A stretch of 64,000 nucleotides of DNA from Candidatus Heimdallarchaeota archaeon (GTDB lineage Archaea; Asgardarchaeota; Heimdallarchaeia; Hodarchaeales; Hodarchaeaceae): assembly GCA_019057635.1 (NCBI GenBank), contig DXJL01000156.1:1-64000 (forward strand), read 5' to 3'. The position numbers and the translations under genes are program-made. The notes under the pieces were generated by a model that did not search any database, was not told where the DNA came from, and worked only from the letters and a program-made list of their open reading frames with translations. Below, one piece after another: positions 17,385 to 27,659 of the stretch. Within the stretch, counting starts at the first letter, position 1. Every line of letters starts with the position of its first letter.

Positions 17385-17780
17385 GTGATAGGGAAACCAT
17401 TGGGAACTCATGAAATTATCCAAGCTTTTGAAGCAGTTTTCGGAGAAATGATTGACCTTCCAGCATGTATTTCCATATGTGACAATGATGGGCTCCTCAT
17501 ATATTCAGTGGGGGAATGTGCAGACCAATGGGTCTTAGAATCGTTGTTATCATATCTGATCATGTCATATGAAGCTACTCATGAGAAATTAGCACTAACA
17601 GATGAGAAACTCGATAGTCTCGTGATAACTACTGGGAATAAAGTCTATTACATTGATAATATTGGGGGAAAGGACGGATTATTTATGATAATTCAAACCA
17701 CTCCAGTCTTAATGAACAAAGTTCTCCCCTTTCTTAAAAACATCGTAATTAATGTTGAAAAATCGTTATCTAGGGGATAA
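17385..17780 (+). CDS. Roadblock/LC7 (MglB)-like protein
   Basis: 131 aa; ISICDNDGLLIYS strand-turn-strand motif in an alpha-beta-beta-alpha-beta-beta-beta-alpha pattern. Confidence 0.6.
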   Translation: MIGKPLGTHEIIQAFEAVFGEMIDLPACISICDNDGLLIYSVGECADQWVLESLLSYLIMSYEATHEKLALTDEKLDSLVITTGNKVYYIDNIGGKDGLFMIIQTTPVLMNKVLPFLKNIVINVEKSLSRG

Positions 17781-18023: not shown

Positions 18024-19109
18024 ATGGGAAAAATTAGAGTAGCAATTGCGGGATTAGGTAATTGTGCATCAGCCTTAATTCAAGGAGTTCACTATTATCG
18101 CAATGAAAAACCAGATACACGGGTTCCAGGACTTATGCATGTAAAATTTGGTGATTATCATGTCCATGATTTGGAATTCGTTGCTGCTTTTGAAGTCAAT
18201 AAAGATAAAATTGGGAAGAAAATAAGTGATGCGATTTGGATTGAACCCAATTGTACCCCAAAGTTCTCTGATATCCCTGAAATCGATGTAATCGTTCAAC
18301 CTGGACCTATCAATGATGGTGTTGCTTCTCACATGGTGGATTCTTTCCATTGTTATGATGAAGCGAAAATGAGTCCTGTTGATGTAGCTCAAGTCTTAAA
18401 AGATGCAAAAGCTGACGTATTGGTTAATTTTCTGCCAGTTGGAAGTGAGAAAGCTACACGTGTTTACGCACAAGCATGCCTAGATTCTGGAGTTTCTCTT
18501 GCCAATGGAATTCCTTCGTTTATTGTTTCAGATCCAACGAAAGAATGGCCAAATAAATTTGAAGAGAAGGGCATTCCTATTGCTGGAGATGATATAAAAT
18601 CTCAAATAGGAGCTACGATTCTACATCGTGTTCTGACCAAATTAATGTTGGATCGTGGAATCGAAATTGAGAAAACTTATCAATTGAATGTCGGTGGAAA
18701 TACTGATTTTGAAAATATGAAGTACGAAGCTCGTTTAACGTCAAAGCGGATAAGTAAAACAGAAGCAGTTACAAGTTTAATGCCCCATGATGTACCAACA
18801 CGAATTGGCCCCTCTGATTATGTACCTTTTTTAGGAGATAGAAAGATCTGTTACTTGATGCTTGAAGGACGAAAATTTGGTGATCAACCTGTTTCTATTG
18901 AAGCAAAATTAAGTGTCATTGATAGTCCCAATTCCGCAGGTGTTATGATAGACGTCATCCGGGCTTTAAAAATTGCCAGAGATCGTAAAATCGGTGGTCC
19001 ATTAATTTCAATGTCTTCGTATTCATTTAAACACCCTCCAGTTCAAGTACCTGATTTTGAGGCTCATGAACGTGTTGAGGCATTTATCCGTGGAGAAGTA
19101 GAAAGGTAA
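18024..19109 (+). CDS. ino1: myo-inositol-1-phosphate synthase
   Basis: GLGNCAS, GDDIKSQIGAT, QLNVGGNTDF, DSPNSAG. Confidence 0.95.
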   Translation: MGKIRVAIAGLGNCASALIQGVHYYRNEKPDTRVPGLMHVKFGDYHVHDLEFVAAFEVNKDKIGKKISDAIWIEPNCTPKFSDIPEIDVIVQPGPINDGVASHMVDSFHCYDEAKMSPVDVAQVLKDAKADVLVNFLPVGSEKATRVYAQACLDSGVSLANGIPSFIVSDPTKEWPNKFEEKGIPIAGDDIKSQIGATILHRVLTKLMLDRGIEIEKTYQLNVGGNTDFENMKYEARLTSKRISKTEAVTSLMPHDVPTRIGPSDYVPFLGDRKICYLMLEGRKFGDQPVSIEAKLSVIDSPNSAGVMIDVIRALKIARDRKIGGPLISMSSYSFKHPPVQVPDFEAHERVEAFIRGEVER

Positions 19110-19124
19110 AATCTTCGACAGCAC

Positions 19125-20063
19125 ATGGTGCTCGATTTGGCAACTAAGTCATTATTTCACGATATTTACGATTTAATTAGATTACCTCTATGTATAATGG
19201 GTTCTCTTGCTGGGTTTACTGCAGGATTAATTGTTTTATTAGTTCAGAACCCAGGTTACAATATTATTACGCTACTTTCACAATATTGGCAATTAGGAGC
19301 GTTAGGTCTTTCAATCCCATTTCTTATTGTAGGCGCTTCAATGGCTATTAATGATTACCATGATTATGAGGCTGATCGTATAAATGGAAGGATTGATAGA
19401 CCGCTTGTTCGAAATTCTAAGCTTAAACCACAATATGTCCTCTATGGGTCACTCTCAATGATTGGACTTGGAGTTTTGATTTCTCTCTTCCTCTTTAATA
19501 GCAATTTCTTAGTACCTATTGGTGTTATCATTTTTAGTTTTCTATCAATATCATACAATTTATGGACCAAAGAAAAAGGGATTTTAGGGAATATCACAGT
19601 TGCTGCAAGTAATACTGCTCCTTACCTATTAACTCTAGTGGCTCTTGATGCTCAAGATCTAGATACCGTACTTGTCGTTGTTGTAATGGCAATTATTGTC
19701 TTTTGCGGTGTATTGGGACGTGAATTAGTAAAAGGAATTATGGATATCGAAGGTGATCAGAAAACCGACTCCCGTACATTTGCTGTTCAATACGGTCCCA
19801 AAAGAGCCGTACAAATGGCTTCTTTCTTTTTTATTCTCTTAATTATTCTCATACCTATACCTATGTTCATTAAATTTCAGCATAATTATCTCTATCTTAT
19901 TTTAATGATGATTACTGTTTTTCTGTTTCTCTATACTGTTGGTATTTTATATAACGATCCTTCTATTAAATCAGGAAAAAAAGCTAGATCCTATACTCGA
20001 ACTGCTCTTTGGATTGGATCTGCAGCATTTTTAGTTGGAGCTATTGCTCTTTCTGGAGTTTAA
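19125..20063 (+). CDS. UbiA-family prenyltransferase (DGGGP synthase-like)
   Basis: NDYHDYEADRINGRIDRPL and RELVKGIMDIEGD motifs; multi-TM. Confidence 0.85.
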   Translation: MVLDLATKSLFHDIYDLIRLPLCIMGSLAGFTAGLIVLLVQNPGYNIITLLSQYWQLGALGLSIPFLIVGASMAINDYHDYEADRINGRIDRPLVRNSKLKPQYVLYGSLSMIGLGVLISLFLFNSNFLVPIGVIIFSFLSISYNLWTKEKGILGNITVAASNTAPYLLTLVALDAQDLDTVLVVVVMAIIVFCGVLGRELVKGIMDIEGDQKTDSRTFAVQYGPKRAVQMASFFFILLIILIPIPMFIKFQHNYLYLILMMITVFLFLYTVGILYNDPSIKSGKKARSYTRTALWIGSAAFLVGAIALSGV

Positions 20064-20086
20064 ATCACGACTATTAAGGGATAAAA

Positions 20087-21469
20087 TTGTTCGGAGAACC
20101 AAATAAATTCGCTTGGCAAATGGCTCAGAAGACTAATCTGCGCGAGGGAACAGATGGAGTATATAAAATTATTAGAAATCTCTATAGATACCAACAACAA
20201 AAACTAACTAATAAGGAATTTGCAAAATTAGTTGGAATTCCAGTGCCAGTTGTCTCAGCTGTTCGGGGGGAATTGATGAAAGCAAAATTTCTGAAAACGA
20301 AAAATCTTCTTAGCTCAACGGCTATATCGTGGATTGAAAAGGAATTGGGATTGCGATTTGAATTCTCCTTCTTTCAAGAGTTTTCTCCTTCTTCTCCCAC
20401 ACTTACTCCAGAACATTTGTCATTTTTTAATCCAATAATTAAAGCTCTTGAGGGCCGTCCGCCACCTGAATATAAATACGATCAATCAAGAAGCACTACT
20501 GAAACCGTATTAAAACGAGCTATAATAATGGCAAGAAATGGGGATGTAGAAGGAAAGAAAATAGTTTTACTCGGTGATGATGATGGATTATCACTGGCAC
20601 TTGCGCATCTTGATTGTGCTCGTGAAATTTTGGTGATTGATATTGACTCACGAATTTTAAAGTTAATAAATGACTTTACCGAGAGAAATAATTATTCAAC
20701 TTTGATACGTACTCAATTATGGGATATAAGAACCGCTTTTCCAGAAGAGTGGTTGAATCATTTTGATACGTTTGAGATGGATCCACCTTACACTGTTTCA
20801 GGATTTAAACTGTTTGTAACACGTGCTCTTTCATTAATTAATCCTGATTCAAGTTCACATGGGTATATTTCCTTTGGGAATAAGTCACCGTTTGAAAAGT
20901 GGGAGTGTCAAGAACATTTAAATACACATGGACTTGTTATCGAGGAATTTATTCCTAATTTCAACAAGTATATTGGAGCAACAATACTTGGAAGCACATC
21001 TAATCTGTATATTGTTGGCTCAATCCCACAAAAAGTGTGTAGGACAGAGTTAACAGATCAACAACAAGCAATCTATACTTTTGATGAAAAAAAAGTAAAA
21101 GATTTACCAACAGTAGGGTATCAGATAATTGCAGAATTCTATGGAGTGAGTAAAGAAATCTTAACTGATGGTGATCATCTAAAGGGAATCGCCTTACTTG
21201 GATTAGAGCAGAGTCAACTTCATACCGAGGAAGTTTTTTTAAAAGAGTATTCTCCATACGGAGTATCAATCATCTTTATTTTAGTAGAAAGTCATTGTCA
21301 CATCCATACGTGGCCTGAACATAACTATTTATCGTTGGATTTATTCGTATGTGAAGCAAAGGAAAAAGCCGAAACATTCTTTCACTACTTATTAAGAAGT
21401 ATAAATCCAGTCGATTATCATAAATTTCAATTTTATCGGGGACATCCCCCATTATCAGATGAGTCTTAA
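20087..21469 (+). CDS. Fusion: branched-chain polyamine synthase (BpsA/DUF43)-like domain plus pyruvoyl S-adenosylmethionine decarboxylase (SpeD/SpeH) domain
   Basis: DQ..ST.ET...R, GDVEGKKIVLLGDDD and FDTFEMDPPYT (BpsA-like). C-terminal GVS....LVESHCHIHTWPE..YLSLDLFVC (AdoMetDC self-cleavage site). Confidence 0.85.
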   Translation: MFGEPNKFAWQMAQKTNLREGTDGVYKIIRNLYRYQQQKLTNKEFAKLVGIPVPVVSAVRGELMKAKFLKTKNLLSSTAISWIEKELGLRFEFSFFQEFSPSSPTLTPEHLSFFNPIIKALEGRPPPEYKYDQSRSTTETVLKRAIIMARNGDVEGKKIVLLGDDDGLSLALAHLDCAREILVIDIDSRILKLINDFTERNNYSTLIRTQLWDIRTAFPEEWLNHFDTFEMDPPYTVSGFKLFVTRALSLINPDSSSHGYISFGNKSPFEKWECQEHLNTHGLVIEEFIPNFNKYIGATILGSTSNLYIVGSIPQKVCRTELTDQQQAIYTFDEKKVKDLPTVGYQIIAEFYGVSKEILTDGDHLKGIALLGLEQSQLHTEEVFLKEYSPYGVSIIFILVESHCHIHTWPEHNYLSLDLFVCEAKEKAETFFHYLLRSINPVDYHKFQFYRGHPPLSDES

Positions 21470-21482
21470 GGTGTAAAAGTAA

Positions 21483-22136
21483 ATGTCAAGTCGTTTGGAA
21501 GATCAAAATCATGAATTCAACTTTCTAAACGAACTAGGTAGAAAAGCAGTCCACTTGACTGTGTTAATTATTCCTTTTAGTTACCATGTACTTAAAATCG
21601 AGTTATGGTTTATAATTTTGTCATTATTCGGTGTTTTATGCTTTTTCATTCCGATGGAGCTATACCGTCTTAAGGTCAATCCAAGAACATGGTTAAACTT
21701 CATAACTCGGGAAGCAGAAAAGGATGAAGTTGCAAACTATATTCCTTCAACACTTATTTGGTTAGCAGTATTGCTTGGAGTTTACTGTTTTTATTCAATG
21801 GAAATAGCAGAATTGGCATTATTAGCAACTGTACTTGGAGATTCTGCTGCAGCGCTTATTGGAAAAGGAGTAGGGCAGCATAGATTGCCCCTTACTAAGG
21901 AGAAAACAATAGAAGGGTACTTGGGAGGAGTAGTATTCGCTTACATAATTGGATTTGCCTTTCTATATATAATTGGAATGCCCTCCCTAATCCTCCCTCT
22001 CTTACCCGCTGTTGCGATAGCAATATTCGATTTTTTTGAAGATTTACCATATTGGGCGGCAGATAACCTATTTCACCCATTAATAACGCTTGCCCTCGCA
22101 TATATCTCAATTATTCTAGGAATTATTAATGTTTAA
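21483..22136 (+). CDS. CTP-dependent polyprenol/diacylglycerol kinase family (SEC59/DGK1/VTE5-like)
   Basis: RKAVH, GDSAAALIGK, KTIEG, DN motif; multi-TM. Confidence 0.82.
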   Translation: MSSRLEDQNHEFNFLNELGRKAVHLTVLIIPFSYHVLKIELWFIILSLFGVLCFFIPMELYRLKVNPRTWLNFITREAEKDEVANYIPSTLIWLAVLLGVYCFYSMEIAELALLATVLGDSAAALIGKGVGQHRLPLTKEKTIEGYLGGVVFAYIIGFAFLYIIGMPSLILPLLPAVAIAIFDFFEDLPYWAADNLFHPLITLALAYISIILGIINV

Positions 22137-22143
22137 TTCCTCA

Positions 22144-22875
22144 TTACGGTTTTCCTGTTAATGGTATCATCTTATTTGAATTGCATACATCACAATGATT
22201 ATTTTTGATGAAACAATTCTTACAATAAGGCGTACTACAGCTGGGATTACCACACATTACCGTAGCAAGAGCATTACATGAATTACATACAGTTTTAGAT
22301 CCAAATATATTCCGAGATTGCCCGTAACGCTTGATTCGATAGTATACAATAATACTAAGTAATATTAGAAGGAAAAAGAGGAAGGGAACGACGAAAGGAA
22401 GATCAAAGAGTGTTTTGGGAATCTCTGTTGCATCAAGCAATATCTCAGATATTGTCACTTGATAGAATAAATCTTCATTATGGAAGGGATCTGTTTCATT
22501 ATTGAAGGCCTCTCCATCTATAAAAAACACGTTAAACGTTTTTGTATCACCTGCTTTCATATATACTCCATCATATATACCCAATATGCCCTTTAGAAAT
22601 CCCACATTTGGTGGAACAGTTAGATCTGGATACAGTTCATATAATTCATTGGGTGCATTTGGATCGTTTGGATCGTGAACCCATACAGTACCATTTTGCC
22701 GCTCTACAACCTCCGTTTCAATCCACAAAGTATAGTTGAGCTTAACAACGTCATTTAGTTCTACAAGAGTATCAGGTGTAACGTCTATTGCGTTACTTAG
22801 CTGAATACTTCCACTAGAAGCTGGAATAATCAGAAATGAGAAGAAAATAAGTGGTAAAAAGCTTCTACGATCCAT
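22144..22875 (-). CDS. Single-pass membrane protein: signal peptide, FKBP-like domain, TM helix, C-terminal 8-Cys zinc finger
   Basis: DVVKLNYTLW, GF.KGILG..MKAGDTKTF and LFYQVTI are FKBP-like. The C-terminus is CxxC-x7-C-x4-C-x4-CxxC-x6-CxxC. Confidence 0.6.
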   Translation of the reverse strand: MDRRSFLPLIFFSFLIIPASSGSIQLSNAIDVTPDTLVELNDVVKLNYTLWIETEVVERQNGTVWVHDPNDPNAPNELYELYPDLTVPPNVGFLKGILGIYDGVYMKAGDTKTFNVFFIDGEAFNNETDPFHNEDLFYQVTISEILLDATEIPKTLFDLPFVVPFLFFLLILLSIIVYYRIKRYGQSRNIFGSKTVCNSCNALATVMCGNPSCSTPYCKNCFIKNNHCDVCNSNKMIPLTGKP

Positions 22876-24323: not shown

Positions 24324-24692
24324 ATGTCTTATCAAGATGATATGAACGCTTTAATCCAAAATGGATATGTGTCAATCGTTACAATTTTAGATCCTAATGG
24401 GGCACCCTATTGGACAAACCAACCCGAATGGCATGTTGACGGCCCTGCTCTTTTATCCTCATGGCAAAACAAAGAGCCAGGTGTTAATATTGCTGGAGTT
24501 CGTTACTCCAGTATGGTTAATGATTGGGAAGTTGGCAACTTTGTAGCCCGAAATGTAGGCGGAGCAGGAATAATTTGCCTAGTACGAGCGCCAAATAATT
24601 ATTATTTTTTGACCTGGACTCCTGGTGATGTTCAGATTCCTTCTATCAATGTCCACGGCGAAGTAGCAAAGATGGCTATTAAATTCCAGTAA
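24324..24692 (+). CDS. Profilin-like protein (eukaryotic signature protein)
   Basis: 122 aa; MSYQ N-terminal helix, TILDPNG..YW and GVNIAGVRY match the profilin pattern (MSWQ.., AI...DG..WA, G..v.G.KY). Confidence 0.8.
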   Translation: MSYQDDMNALIQNGYVSIVTILDPNGAPYWTNQPEWHVDGPALLSSWQNKEPGVNIAGVRYSSMVNDWEVGNFVARNVGGAGIICLVRAPNNYYFLTWTPGDVQIPSINVHGEVAKMAIKFQ

Positions 24693-24854: not shown

Positions 24855-27659
24855 ATGAACGGCCAATGGAAAAATACTTTTGTTTCACTAAGCAACATTA
24901 GAAATAATCTTCTTGCGGTAAGTTCCACCTCAGATAATTCATCATATGACTTTGTAAATCAATATCTCTTACAAATGACAGTTTTATGGACTTTACAGAA
25001 ACATCGGTACTTCAATGATGATGAAAACTATTTTATTACGATGTTCCATTTAATTGAAAAGAATGATCAAAATATTCCTTTCAATACCTACAATGAGTTT
25101 ATAAATTCATTATTAATAGAATTGTCTTCACTGAATGATAATCATCTTAGCATAGATCAACGATTTGGGAGATTACGAGGCTGCAAATCTGCGATATTTA
25201 TCAATATCTCACTTTTACAAAAGAAAGCAAATTTCTCTAACGCAAGATACTACAATTCATTAAAATCGCTTTTGAGTGATAATGAAATTTCCAAGTCACT
25301 GGGAATATTAACAGTTCTTGATCGAATAGATTTTGAAATTAACGGAACATTTTTGGGATCCTTATATGAGTGGTTGATATCATCTAGAACCAAAAGGAAA
25401 GGTGGAGTATATTATACTCCCGTGGAACTAACAGCTTATATTTCGCGCTACTCAGTAAGAACGCTACTAATGGGTCAGTTGGGGGTTAAATCTAGATATT
25501 CACTTGATGCCTGGGTTACTTATTTCGAGTCCCTTGATAGCACTGGTTTATTAAGATTGTATGAAACATTAATTAATTTAACGATACTAGATCCCGCTGT
25601 TGGTACTGGACAATTCCTAGAAAGTGTTATTGACGAATTATTATCAATATATTCTAAGCTAGTCAGAAAATTTAAAGCTTTAAATCTGTCACTACCGCTC
25701 AATCTTATTACCAATCGATCTCATAACACTGGAAACCTAATCGATCTTACAAAGATTACAGATCAGACAGAATTTGAATTCTATCTATTAACACATCTGA
25801 TTTTTCCAAAATCATTATATGGAGTAGATATAGACCCTTTTGTTATTCCTTTCACAAAGACTCGGTTATTTATTTATGCTGCTCAACGAATTAACCATCA
25901 TGAGAAAGATTTTCATTTCATTAATCCATTCCAGTGTAATTTAAAGGTTGGAGATGCACTGTTGATGGCTTGGGAGGATTTCTTCCCAAAAACATTGACT
26001 AAGAAAAATAATTTCTCTCTTATTCTTACAAATCCCCCTTATATTGGAGAAAGTGACAATAAGGAACTATTTAGGAAATATTCGGTTGCTTTTCCTACGT
26101 ATTATGAGGGAAAACTCAACATTTGGTATCTATTTTTTCATTTAGCCCTTAATTTAGTTCAATCTGGAGGTATTGTATCTTTTTTAGTCTCTAATTATTG
26201 GTTGACTGCCTCAGGAGCTTCAAAATTACGTAAAAGAATGCTGGAAGAAACTTTTATATTAGAATTTATTGATTTTAAAGAAAATCGTTTGTTTAAAGGA
26301 GCTCAAGGTATTCATTCTAGTATAATAACCATAAAGAAACTGAAAAAGCACAATTCATCCATAAATTGTGTTTTCTATACAAAGAAAGAACCAGTGAACA
26401 GTCAACTTCTAAATAAAATGTCGGATCAATTGGTATTCCAAATTAACCAGAAAAATCTTACTTTACACAATTGGGATGACTATTTTCATTTTCTTCCTTC
26501 TGATGTCTCTCTCATACTGAATAATATGATTAATAAATCCTCTCCTCTTAAAACCTCCACCTACACAGTAAAAGAAGGCTTGATCACAGGTCTTAACAAG
26601 ATTACTAAACGTCAAATTGAGAAATATGGATACCCTATAACTTGGATAAATCGTGGCATATATGTGTTTGATAGTAAAAATAAAAATGACCAAAAGACTA
26701 TTCAGACATTTACAACTGAGGAAAATGAATATTTACGTCCTTTATACAAAAGTTCATCTATAGTGGATTATTCAACACGAGCTAAGACTGATCAACGCTT
26801 TCTTTATCTAGTAAGGAGAGATGTAGATATTTCCACAATCCCAAATATAAAAAAGCATCTTGAACAATACCAAACAGCTACGCACAATTCGTTAGATCAC
26901 CCTCCATATATTAATCGTCCTCGACAAAAAGACATCTTTCTCTCTCCAAAACTTGTGACTCCTCAAAGAGCACGGAAAACAAACTTTGGATACAGCTTTA
27001 CAGAATGGTTTGCTGCTCAAGATGTATATTTTATTCTCGAAGAGAGAAACTCAATTCAAAAATTGAAAATTCTCCTTATTCTTCTGCAATCGAAGGTATC
27101 TTTCTACTGGTTCTCTTGGATGGGGAAAAAAAAGGGCTCTCAGTTGGAGTTTTTTGGTGAGTCAGTTTCTAACTTTCCCATTCCTAAGAAATTGAATAAA
27201 GGAGATCTTCTAGCGCGGATCGCTGATTATTTAATTTTTCTGAACTCCTTTGAAAACAAGTCAAATGAATATGAACATATAAGGAGGTTTCTAGAAGAAG
27301 GAATCGCTAATGTTGTTGTTTATAAGAGTTATTTTAACGACTTAATTCTCACTTCTCCAAGTCAAAATCAACTTTACGAGGATGTTTGTGATTTTCTAGT
27401 TAAATCCCTCGAAGAAATTGACATAGAACATTTTTTAAAACTCCGACATGCCATTTCTGTCACAGAAAGTGTTACCACGACTAATAAGACAAACTTTATG
27501 GATTTAAAAGAGTCTATCTTATCTACAATTAATGCCTCCTTTCATAAATTAGTTTCTGATCAGAGGATTGAAAAACTGAACAGTGAAGTAAGCACAAGCC
27601 ATATTGTAGAACAGATTGGCAATTATTATGATTCTAAAAACATTAAAGATACAACATAG
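24855..27659 (+). CDS. Eco57I/TaqI-like gamma-class N6-adenine DNA methyltransferase with TRD; no evident nuclease domain
   Basis: GVYYTP, ILDPAVGTGQF, YGVDID, NPPY, TaqI-C-like C-terminal region. Confidence 0.88.
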   Translation: MNGQWKNTFVSLSNIRNNLLAVSSTSDNSSYDFVNQYLLQMTVLWTLQKHRYFNDDENYFITMFHLIEKNDQNIPFNTYNEFINSLLIELSSLNDNHLSIDQRFGRLRGCKSAIFINISLLQKKANFSNARYYNSLKSLLSDNEISKSLGILTVLDRIDFEINGTFLGSLYEWLISSRTKRKGGVYYTPVELTAYISRYSVRTLLMGQLGVKSRYSLDAWVTYFESLDSTGLLRLYETLINLTILDPAVGTGQFLESVIDELLSIYSKLVRKFKALNLSLPLNLITNRSHNTGNLIDLTKITDQTEFEFYLLTHLIFPKSLYGVDIDPFVIPFTKTRLFIYAAQRINHHEKDFHFINPFQCNLKVGDALLMAWEDFFPKTLTKKNNFSLILTNPPYIGESDNKELFRKYSVAFPTYYEGKLNIWYLFFHLALNLVQSGGIVSFLVSNYWLTASGASKLRKRMLEETFILEFIDFKENRLFKGAQGIHSSIITIKKLKKHNSSINCVFYTKKEPVNSQLLNKMSDQLVFQINQKNLTLHNWDDYFHFLPSDVSLILNNMINKSSPLKTSTYTVKEGLITGLNKITKRQIEKYGYPITWINRGIYVFDSKNKNDQKTIQTFTTEENEYLRPLYKSSSIVDYSTRAKTDQRFLYLVRRDVDISTIPNIKKHLEQYQTATHNSLDHPPYINRPRQKDIFLSPKLVTPQRARKTNFGYSFTEWFAAQDVYFILEERNSIQKLKILLILLQSKVSFYWFSWMGKKKGSQLEFFGESVSNFPIPKKLNKGDLLARIADYLIFLNSFENKSNEYEHIRRFLEEGIANVVVYKSYFNDLILTSPSQNQLYEDVCDFLVKSLEEIDIEHFLKLRHAISVTESVTTTNKTNFMDLKESILSTINASFHKLVSDQRIEKLNSEVSTSHIVEQIGNYYDSKNIKDTT

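Follow-up and report, generated by a model that had tools for sequence, protein, structure and literature searches.

The locus described here raises the question of what is made by a protein that carries a BpsA-like transferase and an S-adenosylmethionine decarboxylase (AdoMetDC) in one polypeptide. Such a protein is encoded in the window, the whole 64,000-nucleotide stretch that was analyzed (positions 1 to 64,000 of contig DXJL01000156.1, assembly GCA_019057635.1, Candidatus Heimdallarchaeota archaeon), which belongs to the order Hodarchaeales of the archaeal class Heimdallarchaeia. The protein is a putative donor-supplying aminopropyltransferase fusion of known type, drawn from a different, uncharacterized transferase family and with the domain order reversed. 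With modest confidence, we favor the view that it is a bifunctional proenzyme, a self-supplying aminopropyltransferase dependent on decarboxylated S-adenosylmethionine (dcSAM), and that it is the basic polyamine synthase of its lineage. The parts of this proposal carry different weight: it is likely that the fusion makes and uses dcSAM, and the assignment of a basic linear polyamine as the product is tentative, its chances falling a little short of even. In public records, the protein is labeled merely 'adenosylmethionine decarboxylase'.

A transferase and a decarboxylase in one reading frame

The single frame of 460 residues holds both Pfam domains, as the earlier note had read from the letters alone. 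BpsA_C (PF01861) spans residues 122-303 (161.3 bits, cut-off 27; profile positions 11-191 of 243) and AdoMet_dc (PF02675) spans residues 347-452 (85.1 bits, cut-off 25; profile positions 2-107 of 107). The protein also scores 84.1 bits on TIGR03330, the adenosylmethionine decarboxylase equivalog of NCBIfam (cut-off 75.65). No NCBIfam model matched the transferase part, and the Spermine_synth domain (PF01564) was not found in the frame by Pfam. Translation is called from a TTG codon, a start favored by the MFGxP N-terminus common to the homologues.

An alignment of 23 fusions, with identities to the window protein from 86% down to 26%, supplied the conservation counts, and the profile built from it was compared with the PDB. 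Profile positions 5-294 align to the Thermococcus kodakarensis enzyme Tk-BpsA (5xnc, chain residues 21-310; E 1.9e-52) and positions 341-454 to the Thermotoga maritima AdoMetDC (1tlu; E 2e-33). Because the first of these matches begins at position 5, the N-terminal region that had been described as HTH-like is real but is not an additional module; it corresponds to the winged-helix N-domain of BpsA itself. The same profile gave weak winged-helix matches to ScaR (5.5e-06) and SloR (5e-05). The AlphaFold2 model of the fusion has a mean pLDDT of 88.3 and a pTM of 0.72, with low confidence confined to residues 335-342 and 453-460. Foldseek searches with this model placed BpsA structures at the top (5xnc_B, E 3.9e-21) and the T. 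maritima AdoMetDC next (TM 0.90 for the AdoMetDC domain, normalized to the target). In VIA-align, model residues 100-336 superpose on Tk-BpsA 94-347 with a Z of 29.3 and an rmsd of 2.5 Å over 231 residues, and the C-terminal domain matches solved AdoMetDC structures with Z 18.9-19.9 and rmsd 1.9-3.5 Å (1tlu, Z 18.9 and 1.9 Å over 116 residues; 2iii, Z 19.9). GDDD, D232, Y295, S402, H407, TWPE and C422 are invariant in all 23 fusions.

The joined architecture is genuine. Both Pfam domains are present in 80 of the 94 database matches to the whole frame, most of them 454-500 residues long and named as proteins of Hodarchaeales, Heimdallarchaeota or Promethearchaeota metagenome-assembled genomes (MAGs), with one from Erysipelothrix sp.; two sit on contigs of 4.94 and 3.16 Mb. 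Of the remaining 14 matches, nine have PF01861 alone, with partial proteins among them, and five (P0090-P0094) are AdoMetDC-SpeE fusions. At the level of the order, 24 genomes were sampled, 22 of which belong to genus g1. Both domains share one open frame in 19 of these 22 (17 frames of 459-468 residues and two cut by contig ends); of the exceptions, G004 is left with the AdoMetDC end, next to a contig edge, and both domains are absent from G001 and G006. The sister family encodes the domains separately, in adjacent frames of 383 and 136 residues in G023 and on different short contigs in G022. An assembly artefact, a possibility raised in the earlier note, is rejected on these counts.

The same union of domains recurs elsewhere. 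Further true fusions were found in three Promethearchaeota MAGs (473-480 residues), a Dysgonamonadaceae MAG (543 residues), Paenibacillus motobuensis (444 residues) and Xenorhabdus hominickii (507 residues), the last two being, with Erysipelothrix sp., cultured bacteria. At nine further loci, the transferase and AdoMetDC genes are adjacent, with both gene orders represented. Adjacent pairs are known from Archaeoglobaceae, Bathyarchaeia, Methanocellales, Chloroflexota, Bipolaricaulota, Gammaproteobacteria and Patescibacteria, and three Streptosporangiaceae loci add divergent pairs. In a FastTree phylogeny of the transferase core (165 of 168 sequences, three with fewer than 150 core residues having been dropped), rooted on the canonical clade, fused forms appear at at least eight places, with moderate supports and with some 'unfused' tips that may be fragments.

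This recurrence also bears on the idea that an ordinary SAM-dependent N-methyltransferase has been joined to a decarboxylase by chance, or that the junction was produced by assembly or annotation. Some sources do call relatives 'predicted methyltransferase', and the structural neighbors that follow BpsA are [DN]PP[YF] amino-methyltransferases such as METTL5 (Z 20.7). Such an origin is nevertheless very improbable, given a fusion that is found in the great majority of matches, closed contigs included, and in unrelated lineages, and that carries GDDD, a motif described in the accessible part of a 2026 review (PMC12979288) as specific to the dcSAM-using BpsA family. A description of a BpsA-family/AdoMetDC fusion or of Hodarchaeales polyamines was not found in the literature searched, outside which lay subscription-only papers and supplements; the remark that the architecture was not known to be characterized thus stands within that scope.

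Proposed donor supply and the GDDD motif

By its scores against curated cut-offs, its cleavage-site residues and its modeled fold, the C-terminal domain is a class 1b AdoMetDC. The constancy of S402, H407 and C422 across the fusions bears out the view that this domain is intact, and the E-S-H triplet reported at nucleotides 21287-21295 corresponds by arithmetic to E401-S402-H403. H407 and C422 align to His68 and Cys83 of the T. maritima enzyme (1tlu, offset 339), and these residues, together with the equivalent of Ser63, are ones that we take to be catalytic. The domain is predicted to self-cleave between E401 and S402, which would leave an alpha chain of 59 residues (402-460) with S402 converted to the pyruvoyl group. 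Residues 1-401, that is, the transferase plus the beta chain, would remain one chain packed against the alpha chain, in line with the tethering anticipated in the earlier note. The processed domain would decarboxylate S-adenosylmethionine to dcSAM, and the BpsA-like domain would bind dcSAM through GDDD and move its aminopropyl group onto an amine.

The transferase itself belongs, judged by its sequence, to a large uncharacterized DPPYT subfamily and is not an orthologue of the branched-polyamine synthase of thermophiles. A search with residues 1-340 against 1.84 billion cluster representatives returned 1403 proteins at E ≤ 0.001. Among the best 150 of these 1403, DPPY[TS] is present in 142, GDDD in 139, a lysine or arginine at the position of K266 in 114, and an AdoMetDC motif in 17. 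In Tk-BpsA, the GDDD residues that set the aminopropyl group of dcSAM in place are Asp159 and Asp160 (PMC12979288, accessible part). Elsewhere in the subfamily, the fusion partners are GNAT (five proteins), LPG_synthase_C (two), N-terminal PP-binding (two) and RrnaAD-like (one) domains, and in P0230 the AdoMetDC is placed at the N-terminus of a DPPYT transferase. DPPYT proteins carrying extra domains or a remnant are P0101, P0102, P0116, P0118, P0154, P0176, P0221, P0112, P0235, P0220 and P0100, the last of which has GDAD and retains a decayed AdoMet_dc remnant of 23.4 bits.

Whether the middle aspartate of GDDD is kept in Heimdallarchaeia goes with the presence of a fused or adjacent AdoMetDC, and this pattern is new; in Tk-BpsA, the amine of dcSAM is held by that aspartate. 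Across 70 genomes of the class that are at least 80% complete, BpsA_C is found in 60 and AdoMet_dc in 29. Where the AdoMetDC is fused (genus g1 of family f1), the motif is GDDD. In family f7, the AdoMetDC gene lies directly upstream in eight of nine genomes and GDDD is present in those eight; G059 is alike. In family f4, 26 of the 27 genomes have GDSD in the main copy and the remaining one has GDGD, with AdoMet_dc in none of the 27, and family f5 has GDFD in 3/3 genomes, again with no AdoMet_dc. GDAD accompanies just an 89-residue AdoMet_dc fragment match in G056, and G058 and G024 have GDSD and no AdoMet_dc. The best 150 representatives show the same relation: every one of the 17 proteins with an AdoMetDC motif carries GDDD, and an AdoMetDC motif is missing from all 11 GDxD variants.

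Such a distribution would be expected of a middle aspartate required only with dcSAM as donor. Since the middle aspartate is kept where an AdoMetDC is present, the fused domain is argued to supply the donor and not the acceptor. The correlation, along with recurrent fusion and adjacency in unrelated lineages, upholds the proposal that the fusion supplies its own substrate. A wider claim, that the fusion supports aminopropyl transfer by this DPPY-type subfamily in general, holds for the GDDD members and breaks down at family f4, whose non-GDDD proteins probably use another donor.

Genomic neighborhoods in family f4 suggest what that donor may be. The GDSD-type gene has two constant neighbors, encoding a CxxCxxCC protein and a LysA-like pyridoxal phosphate (PLP) decarboxylase, at all 11 loci examined (L114:5891-8918, L160-L169), with other flanks that differ. 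The decarboxylase carries PF02784 and PF00278, scores 230 bits on TIGR01048, below the cut-off of that model, and belongs to the fold class of diaminopimelate, ornithine and carboxyspermidine decarboxylases. This arrangement suggests that, in f4, the aminocarboxypropyl group of SAM would be transferred first and decarboxylated afterwards. Orthology of this enzyme with the PLP decarboxylase on contig C31 of the window genome was considered and rejected (23% identity).

The constancy of the f4 pairing could mean that the conserved theme is association with some decarboxylase, in line with a reading in which the pyruvoyl domain of the fusion is not an AdoMetDC. It might be an arginine or ornithine decarboxylase that makes the acceptor, or it might decarboxylate the product after 3-amino-3-carboxypropyl transfer from SAM. 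Neofunctionalized SpeD homologues are indeed widespread, according to the available text of PMC10407285, and the 84.1 bits of the window domain on TIGR03330 compare with 117-140 bits for the bacterial fusions and for unfused proteins encoded beside canonical BpsA. This account is, however, quite improbable: S402, H407 and C422 correspond to residues of the T. maritima AdoMetDC, separate PLP decarboxylase and agmatinase-like genes are available for precursors, and the invariance of GDDD with the pyruvoyl domain, set against GDSD, GDGD or GDFD without it, fits supply of a donor and not of an acceptor.

Returning to a fusion that makes its own dcSAM, a broader scheme can be drawn for the class, one that is possible but on the doubtful side. 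With the SpeD plus SpeE pathway absent, the DPPYT enzyme would be the primary polyamine alkyltransferase of Heimdallarchaeia, in two forms that take their steps in opposite order. The GDDD form would decarboxylate SAM and then transfer, with the acidic linker as a covalent swinging carrier, and the f4 GDSD form would transfer aminocarboxypropyl and then rely on PLP-dependent decarboxylation. If this scheme is true, spermidine synthase would have been replaced by a non-homologous enzyme, and spermidine-type polyamines would be reached by a new route.

Acceptor and product

How the aminopropyl group might travel is indicated by the segment between the two domains. Tk-BpsA works by a ping-pong reaction in which this group is carried on acidic residues at the C-terminus, Glu339 and Asp342-Glu345 (PMC12979288, accessible part). 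In sequence alignment, IYTFDE (residues 329-334) of the fusion falls opposite the motif [VI]Y[KR]D(D/E)ES that ends the full-profile BpsA proteins, with two acidic residues only, and model residue 336 is matched to Tk-BpsA 347 as the end of a structural range, not residue by residue. Since the tail motif of BpsA seems to be retained at the linker position, the carrier element has probably become the flexible linker to the AdoMetDC, and IYTFDE is probably the counterpart of the aminopropyl-carrier tail. The probable survival of the acidic tail motif of canonical BpsA as an inter-domain linker is new. Transfer would probably follow the BpsA scheme, with two half-reactions linked by an acidic residue of the flexible tail, here the linker YTFDE (residues 330-334).

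This likeness to BpsA could be taken, as the earlier note implied, to point to branched polyamines. A genuine branched-chain polyamine synthase that made its own donor would aminopropylate the secondary amine of spermidine to give N4-aminopropylspermidine and N4-bis(aminopropyl)spermidine. Tk-BpsA and Tth-BpsA are the nearest solved structures (Z 29.3-29.8), and GDDD, D232 (Tk Asp225) and Y295 (Tk Tyr290) are kept, along with a probable acidic tail motif. The rest of the canonical signature is not. Full-profile BpsA proteins, which match the Pfam profile over positions 1-242 with 230-340 bits and occur in Archaeoglobaceae, Bathyarchaeia, Methanocellales, Chloroflexota and Bipolaricaulota, have DP[VL]ET or EPLET and ~25 extra residues after NFNxY in addition to their acidic C-terminus. 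The fusion has DPPYT and lacks the insert, its Pfam match of 161 bits stops at position 191 of 243, and Tk Glu259 at the acceptor site is replaced by K266; the equivalent of Tk Tyr316 is ambiguous, being either Y308 or Y330. In the core tree, the DPPYT proteins stand apart from the canonical clade, which forms the root. The host does not appear hyperthermophile-like either, as an IVYWREL fraction of 0.405 in the window proteins corresponds to a rough ~44 °C by the Zeldovich formula. A branching enzyme would also need spermidine, for which no source was found in the genome, neither SpeE nor evidence of the carboxyspermidine dehydrogenase and decarboxylase (CASDH/CASDC) route. Branched-polyamine synthesis is thus unlikely, and this element of the original proposal is not sustained.

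The gene content of the genome fits a more basic role. In the window genome (3.19 Mb; completeness 91.6%, contamination 3.2%), the fusion frame accounts for the single PF02675 match and the single PF01861 match, and a profile search of the contigs gave no PF01564 (SpeE) match and no PvlArgDC match. As the fusion is the sole AdoMetDC and the sole aminopropyltransferase candidate of the genome, and no other way to an aminopropylated polyamine is visible there, a basic polyamine synthase is favored over a spermidine-requiring branching enzyme. The acceptor would most likely be a simple precursor, agmatine or putrescine, and the product a spermidine-type polyamine, not one branched in the manner of thermophiles.

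Precursor genes may lie on contig C31 (L010:5681-10507), where a TiaS-like gene, deoxyhypusine synthase (DHS; TIGR00321, 325 bits, above cut-off), a LysA-like PLP decarboxylase and an agmatinase-like gene are clustered; the genome has five arginase-family matches in all. This looks like an agmatine/hypusine cluster, and its PLP decarboxylase may be an arginine decarboxylase. The single PLP decarboxylase of the window genome gave no nspC match at E ≤ 1e-5. The CASDH/CASDC route is not evident among three Sacchrp_dh_C matches, of which the first is a saccharopine reductase (1e5l, E 2.2e-100), the second resembles PH1688 and the last scores weakly. The 453-residue saccharopine reductase, on contig C157 (L011:1462-2823), is eukaryote-like and close to the fungal lysine-pathway enzymes 1e5l and 2axq.

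DHS uses spermidine and is a likely consumer of the product; it is encoded in all 40 Heimdallarchaeia genomes that are at least 88% complete. The class 2, eukaryote-type AdoMetDC (PF01536) was found in 0/40 class genomes, a result that is uninformative as the control genomes were silent too. Genuine SpeE is present in only one of the 70 class genomes, a distribution that is new. That genome, G010, has two tandem copies (194 and 167 bits) with the N-terminal tetramerization domain, and SpeE matches in other genomes of the class are partial and do not exceed 36.5 bits. The tandem set of G010 looks like an acquired conventional module alongside the fusion. Beside a DUF3326 protein, the same genome (L118:5405-7155, L119:3469-5079) encodes another AdoMetDC homologue, a weak one (41 bits). 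In genus g16 of family f6 (G060-G063), BpsA-like, AdoMetDC and convincing SpeE proteins were not found in any of the four genomes, and DHS was present in the three searched.

A different kind of acceptor is brought to mind by the neighboring genes. Four same-strand genes separated by gaps of 13-23 nt occupy 18024-22136, in the order myo-inositol-1-phosphate synthase (MIPS), a UbiA prenyltransferase resembling digeranylgeranylglyceryl phosphate (DGGGP) synthase, the fusion, and a CTP_transf_1-like membrane protein for which no PDB sequence match was obtained. In a sample of 20 related loci, the three partners are kept in 19, 18 and 17, respectively, and family f2 keeps MIPS (and UbiA) beside its BpsA-like gene. 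The acceptor could accordingly be a lipid head group, an inositol derivative or a small molecule of another kind, for instance a nucleotide or an intermediate bound to a carrier. The positive charge of K266, placed where BpsA binds a cationic amine, and the fusions of the subfamily to GNAT, LPG_synthase_C, PP-binding and RrnaAD-like domains are in keeping with a non-polyamine acceptor. However, genes farther out on both sides are syntenic as well, so the cluster may reflect shared ancestry alone. At 15 distant fused or adjacent loci, these lipid genes never stand beside the pair on the same strand; at one of them, Methanocellales L063, the other strand carries genes for CDP-alcohol phosphatidyltransferase and phosphatidylserine decarboxylase ~2 to 3.3 kb upstream. 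In bacteria, the loci contain TetR, GNAT, MFS, EamA and methyltransferase genes, a setting that suits small amines. An acceptor other than a free polyamine therefore seems unlikely, about as much so as a branched product.

Several observations weigh against the polyamine synthase that we favor. The TIGR03330 cut-off is exceeded by just 8 bits, and AdoMetDC homologues that decarboxylate arginine or ornithine exist as widespread neofunctionalized SpeD proteins (PMC10407285, available text). The DPPYT subfamily as a whole is uncharacterized, and the donor, the cleavage and the product of the fusion are all predicted. With lysine in place of Glu259 and the insert missing, the acceptor is not readable from homology. 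DHS is present in family f4 (19/19, no AdoMetDC) and in genus g16 (3/3, no BpsA-like protein, AdoMetDC or real SpeE), so these relatives hypusinate without the fusion enzyme or import spermidine, and DHS is no proof of its role. The fusion gene lies in a conserved lipid-gene cluster and not among polyamine genes. The GDDD correlation rests on a few related lineages, approximately three with an AdoMetDC and four or five without, and is a pattern, not a statistic. Finally, the distant loci were partly chosen by an AdoMetDC pattern, and the adjacency counts are biased to that extent.

The features of the fusion gene and its immediate neighbors are collected in Table 1. Elsewhere in the window, the frames at 17385-17780, 22144-22875 and 24324-24692 have no Pfam match. 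Two of these, 24324-24692 and 17385-17780, are small conserved frames of 122 and 131 residues, the former found at 66-98% identity in nine of the 20 related loci and, by eye, perhaps reminiscent of Asgard profilins. The stand-alone 138-residue protein at 22987-23403 matches only PF00391 (PEP-utilizing mobile domain, 30.9 bits) and is kept in 16 of the 20 related loci. A 934-residue Eco57I/MmeI-type restriction-modification methylase (PF07669, 96.6 bits, plus N6_Mtase and TaqI_C) is encoded at 24855-27659 and is found in some syntenic relatives only.

Table 1. Positions in the window of the fusion gene, its domains and motifs, and the flanking genes of the same strand
Feature	Position	Strand	Basis
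Whole fusion frame	20087..21469	+	460 residues, TTG start, coordinates include the stop codon; same frame recovered in the genome search
Winged-helix N-terminal domain, residues 1-99	20087..20383	+	5xnc profile match, weak ScaR/SloR winged-helix matches; helices 5-87 in the model
Rossmann-fold BpsA-like transferase domain (DPPYT subfamily), residues 100-316	20384..21034	+	PF01861; VIA-align to Tk-BpsA
GDDD motif, G163-D164-D165-D166	20573..20584	+	Tk-BpsA 157-160; invariant in 23/23 fusions
Subfamily signature D232-P-P-Y-T236	20780..20794	+	D232 equals Tk Asp225; invariant in 23/23; canonical BpsA has DP[VL]ET
K266, basic residue	20882..20884	+	Aligned by HMMER to Tk Glu259 (acceptor-site Glu of Tk- and Tth-BpsA); invariant in 23/23; approximate, MAFFT gaps two residues
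Acidic motif I329-Y-T-F-D-E334, start of the flexible linker	21071..21088	+	Y330 and T331 invariant; pLDDT <50 at 335-342
Class 1b AdoMetDC domain, residues 342-452	21110..21442	+	PF02675, TIGR03330, fold match to T. maritima AdoMetDC
Predicted autocleavage site, E401/S402-H403	21287..21295	+	S402 invariant in 23/23; equals Ser63 of T. maritima AdoMetDC (window numbering is T. maritima + 339)
Alpha-chain catalytic core, H407 to C422 (TWPE 408-411, D418)	21305..21352	+	H407, T408, W409, P410, E411, D418 and C422 invariant
MIPS, two genes upstream	18024..19109	+	PF01658, 110.3 bits; TIGR03450, 458 bits, below its cut-off; syntenic in 19/20 loci
UbiA prenyltransferase, DGGGP-synthase-like, ends 23 nt before the fusion	19125..20063	+	PF01040, 97.8 bits; 6m31, E 9.6e-21; syntenic in 18/20
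217-residue membrane protein, weak CTP_transf_1, starts 13 nt after the fusion	21483..22136	+	PF01148, 26.9 bits (cut-off 24); syntenic in 17/20 plus one partial

Significance and comparison with known systems

The BpsA family is described in the 2026 review as confined to thermophiles (PMC12979288, accessible part). Fusions of AdoMetDC to an aminopropyltransferase are known and tested for SpeE-type transferases only, and the partner here is of the BpsA family. The recurrent fusion thus offers a first functional handle on a subfamily of more than 1000 representative clusters and argues that its GDDD members use dcSAM. It also touches on eukaryotic origins: Hodarchaeales and nearly all other Heimdallarchaeia are without SpeE, and the class includes the proposed closest relatives of eukaryotes. 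If the fusion is their polyamine synthase, a host of this kind was probably not the source of the AdoMetDC and spermidine synthase of eukaryotes, which bears on an open point raised in PMC10407285, as far as its available text goes.

Among characterized enzymes, BpsA (EC 2.5.1.128; T. kodakarensis 5xnc/5xnf/5xnh, Thermus thermophilus 6j27, P. furiosus 2qm3) is the closest to the transferase part. It has the same winged-helix plus Rossmann plan (Z 29.3-29.8) and shares GDDD, the Asp225 and Tyr290 equivalents, and probably an acidic [IV]Y.x[DE][DE] motif at the position of the carrier tail. Unlike BpsA, to which it is ~25-28% identical, the fusion has DPPYT, a lysine for Glu259 and no ~25-residue insert after NFNxY, and its tail leads into a whole AdoMetDC domain instead of ending the protein. 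Its host also differs from those of BpsA in being without SpeE and not hyperthermophile-like. METTL5 (6h2u), a [DN]PP[YF] amino-methyltransferase, shares the Rossmann core (Z 20.7) and the DPPY-type motif that presents the substrate nitrogen. Enzymes of this type, in contrast to the fusion, take a methyl group from SAM and lack GDDD, the BpsA N-domain and a decarboxylase partner.

The decarboxylase part finds its counterpart in class 1b AdoMetDC (SpeD/SpeH; Thermotoga maritima 1tlu/1vr7, Aquifex aeolicus 2iii), to which the full domain is matched over 116-117 residues with an rmsd of 1.9-2.1 Å. The ES/H cleavage site and the His and Cys at the T. maritima His68 and Cys83 positions are shared. 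Unlike these enzymes, the fusion domain follows a 340-residue transferase, so that the predicted beta chain would be 401 residues long, compared with ~62.

Two known fusions resemble the whole. SpeD1-SpeD2 double pyruvoyl proteins, which join AdoMetDC to ornithine decarboxylase (PMC10407285, available text), likewise fuse a class 1b SpeD to a polyamine enzyme and cleave themselves internally; their partner is a second SpeD homologue, whereas here it is a transferase. AdoMetDC-SpeE-type fusions (AdoMetDC-SpmSyn) follow the same logic, with the maker and the user of the donor in one polypeptide, and both activities have been demonstrated experimentally (PMC12803844, in the part of the article that is accessible). 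Their transferase, however, is of the PF01564 type, C-terminal, and stays on the alpha chain, whereas that of the Hodarchaeales protein belongs to the non-homologous BpsA family, is N-terminal, and would stay on the beta chain.

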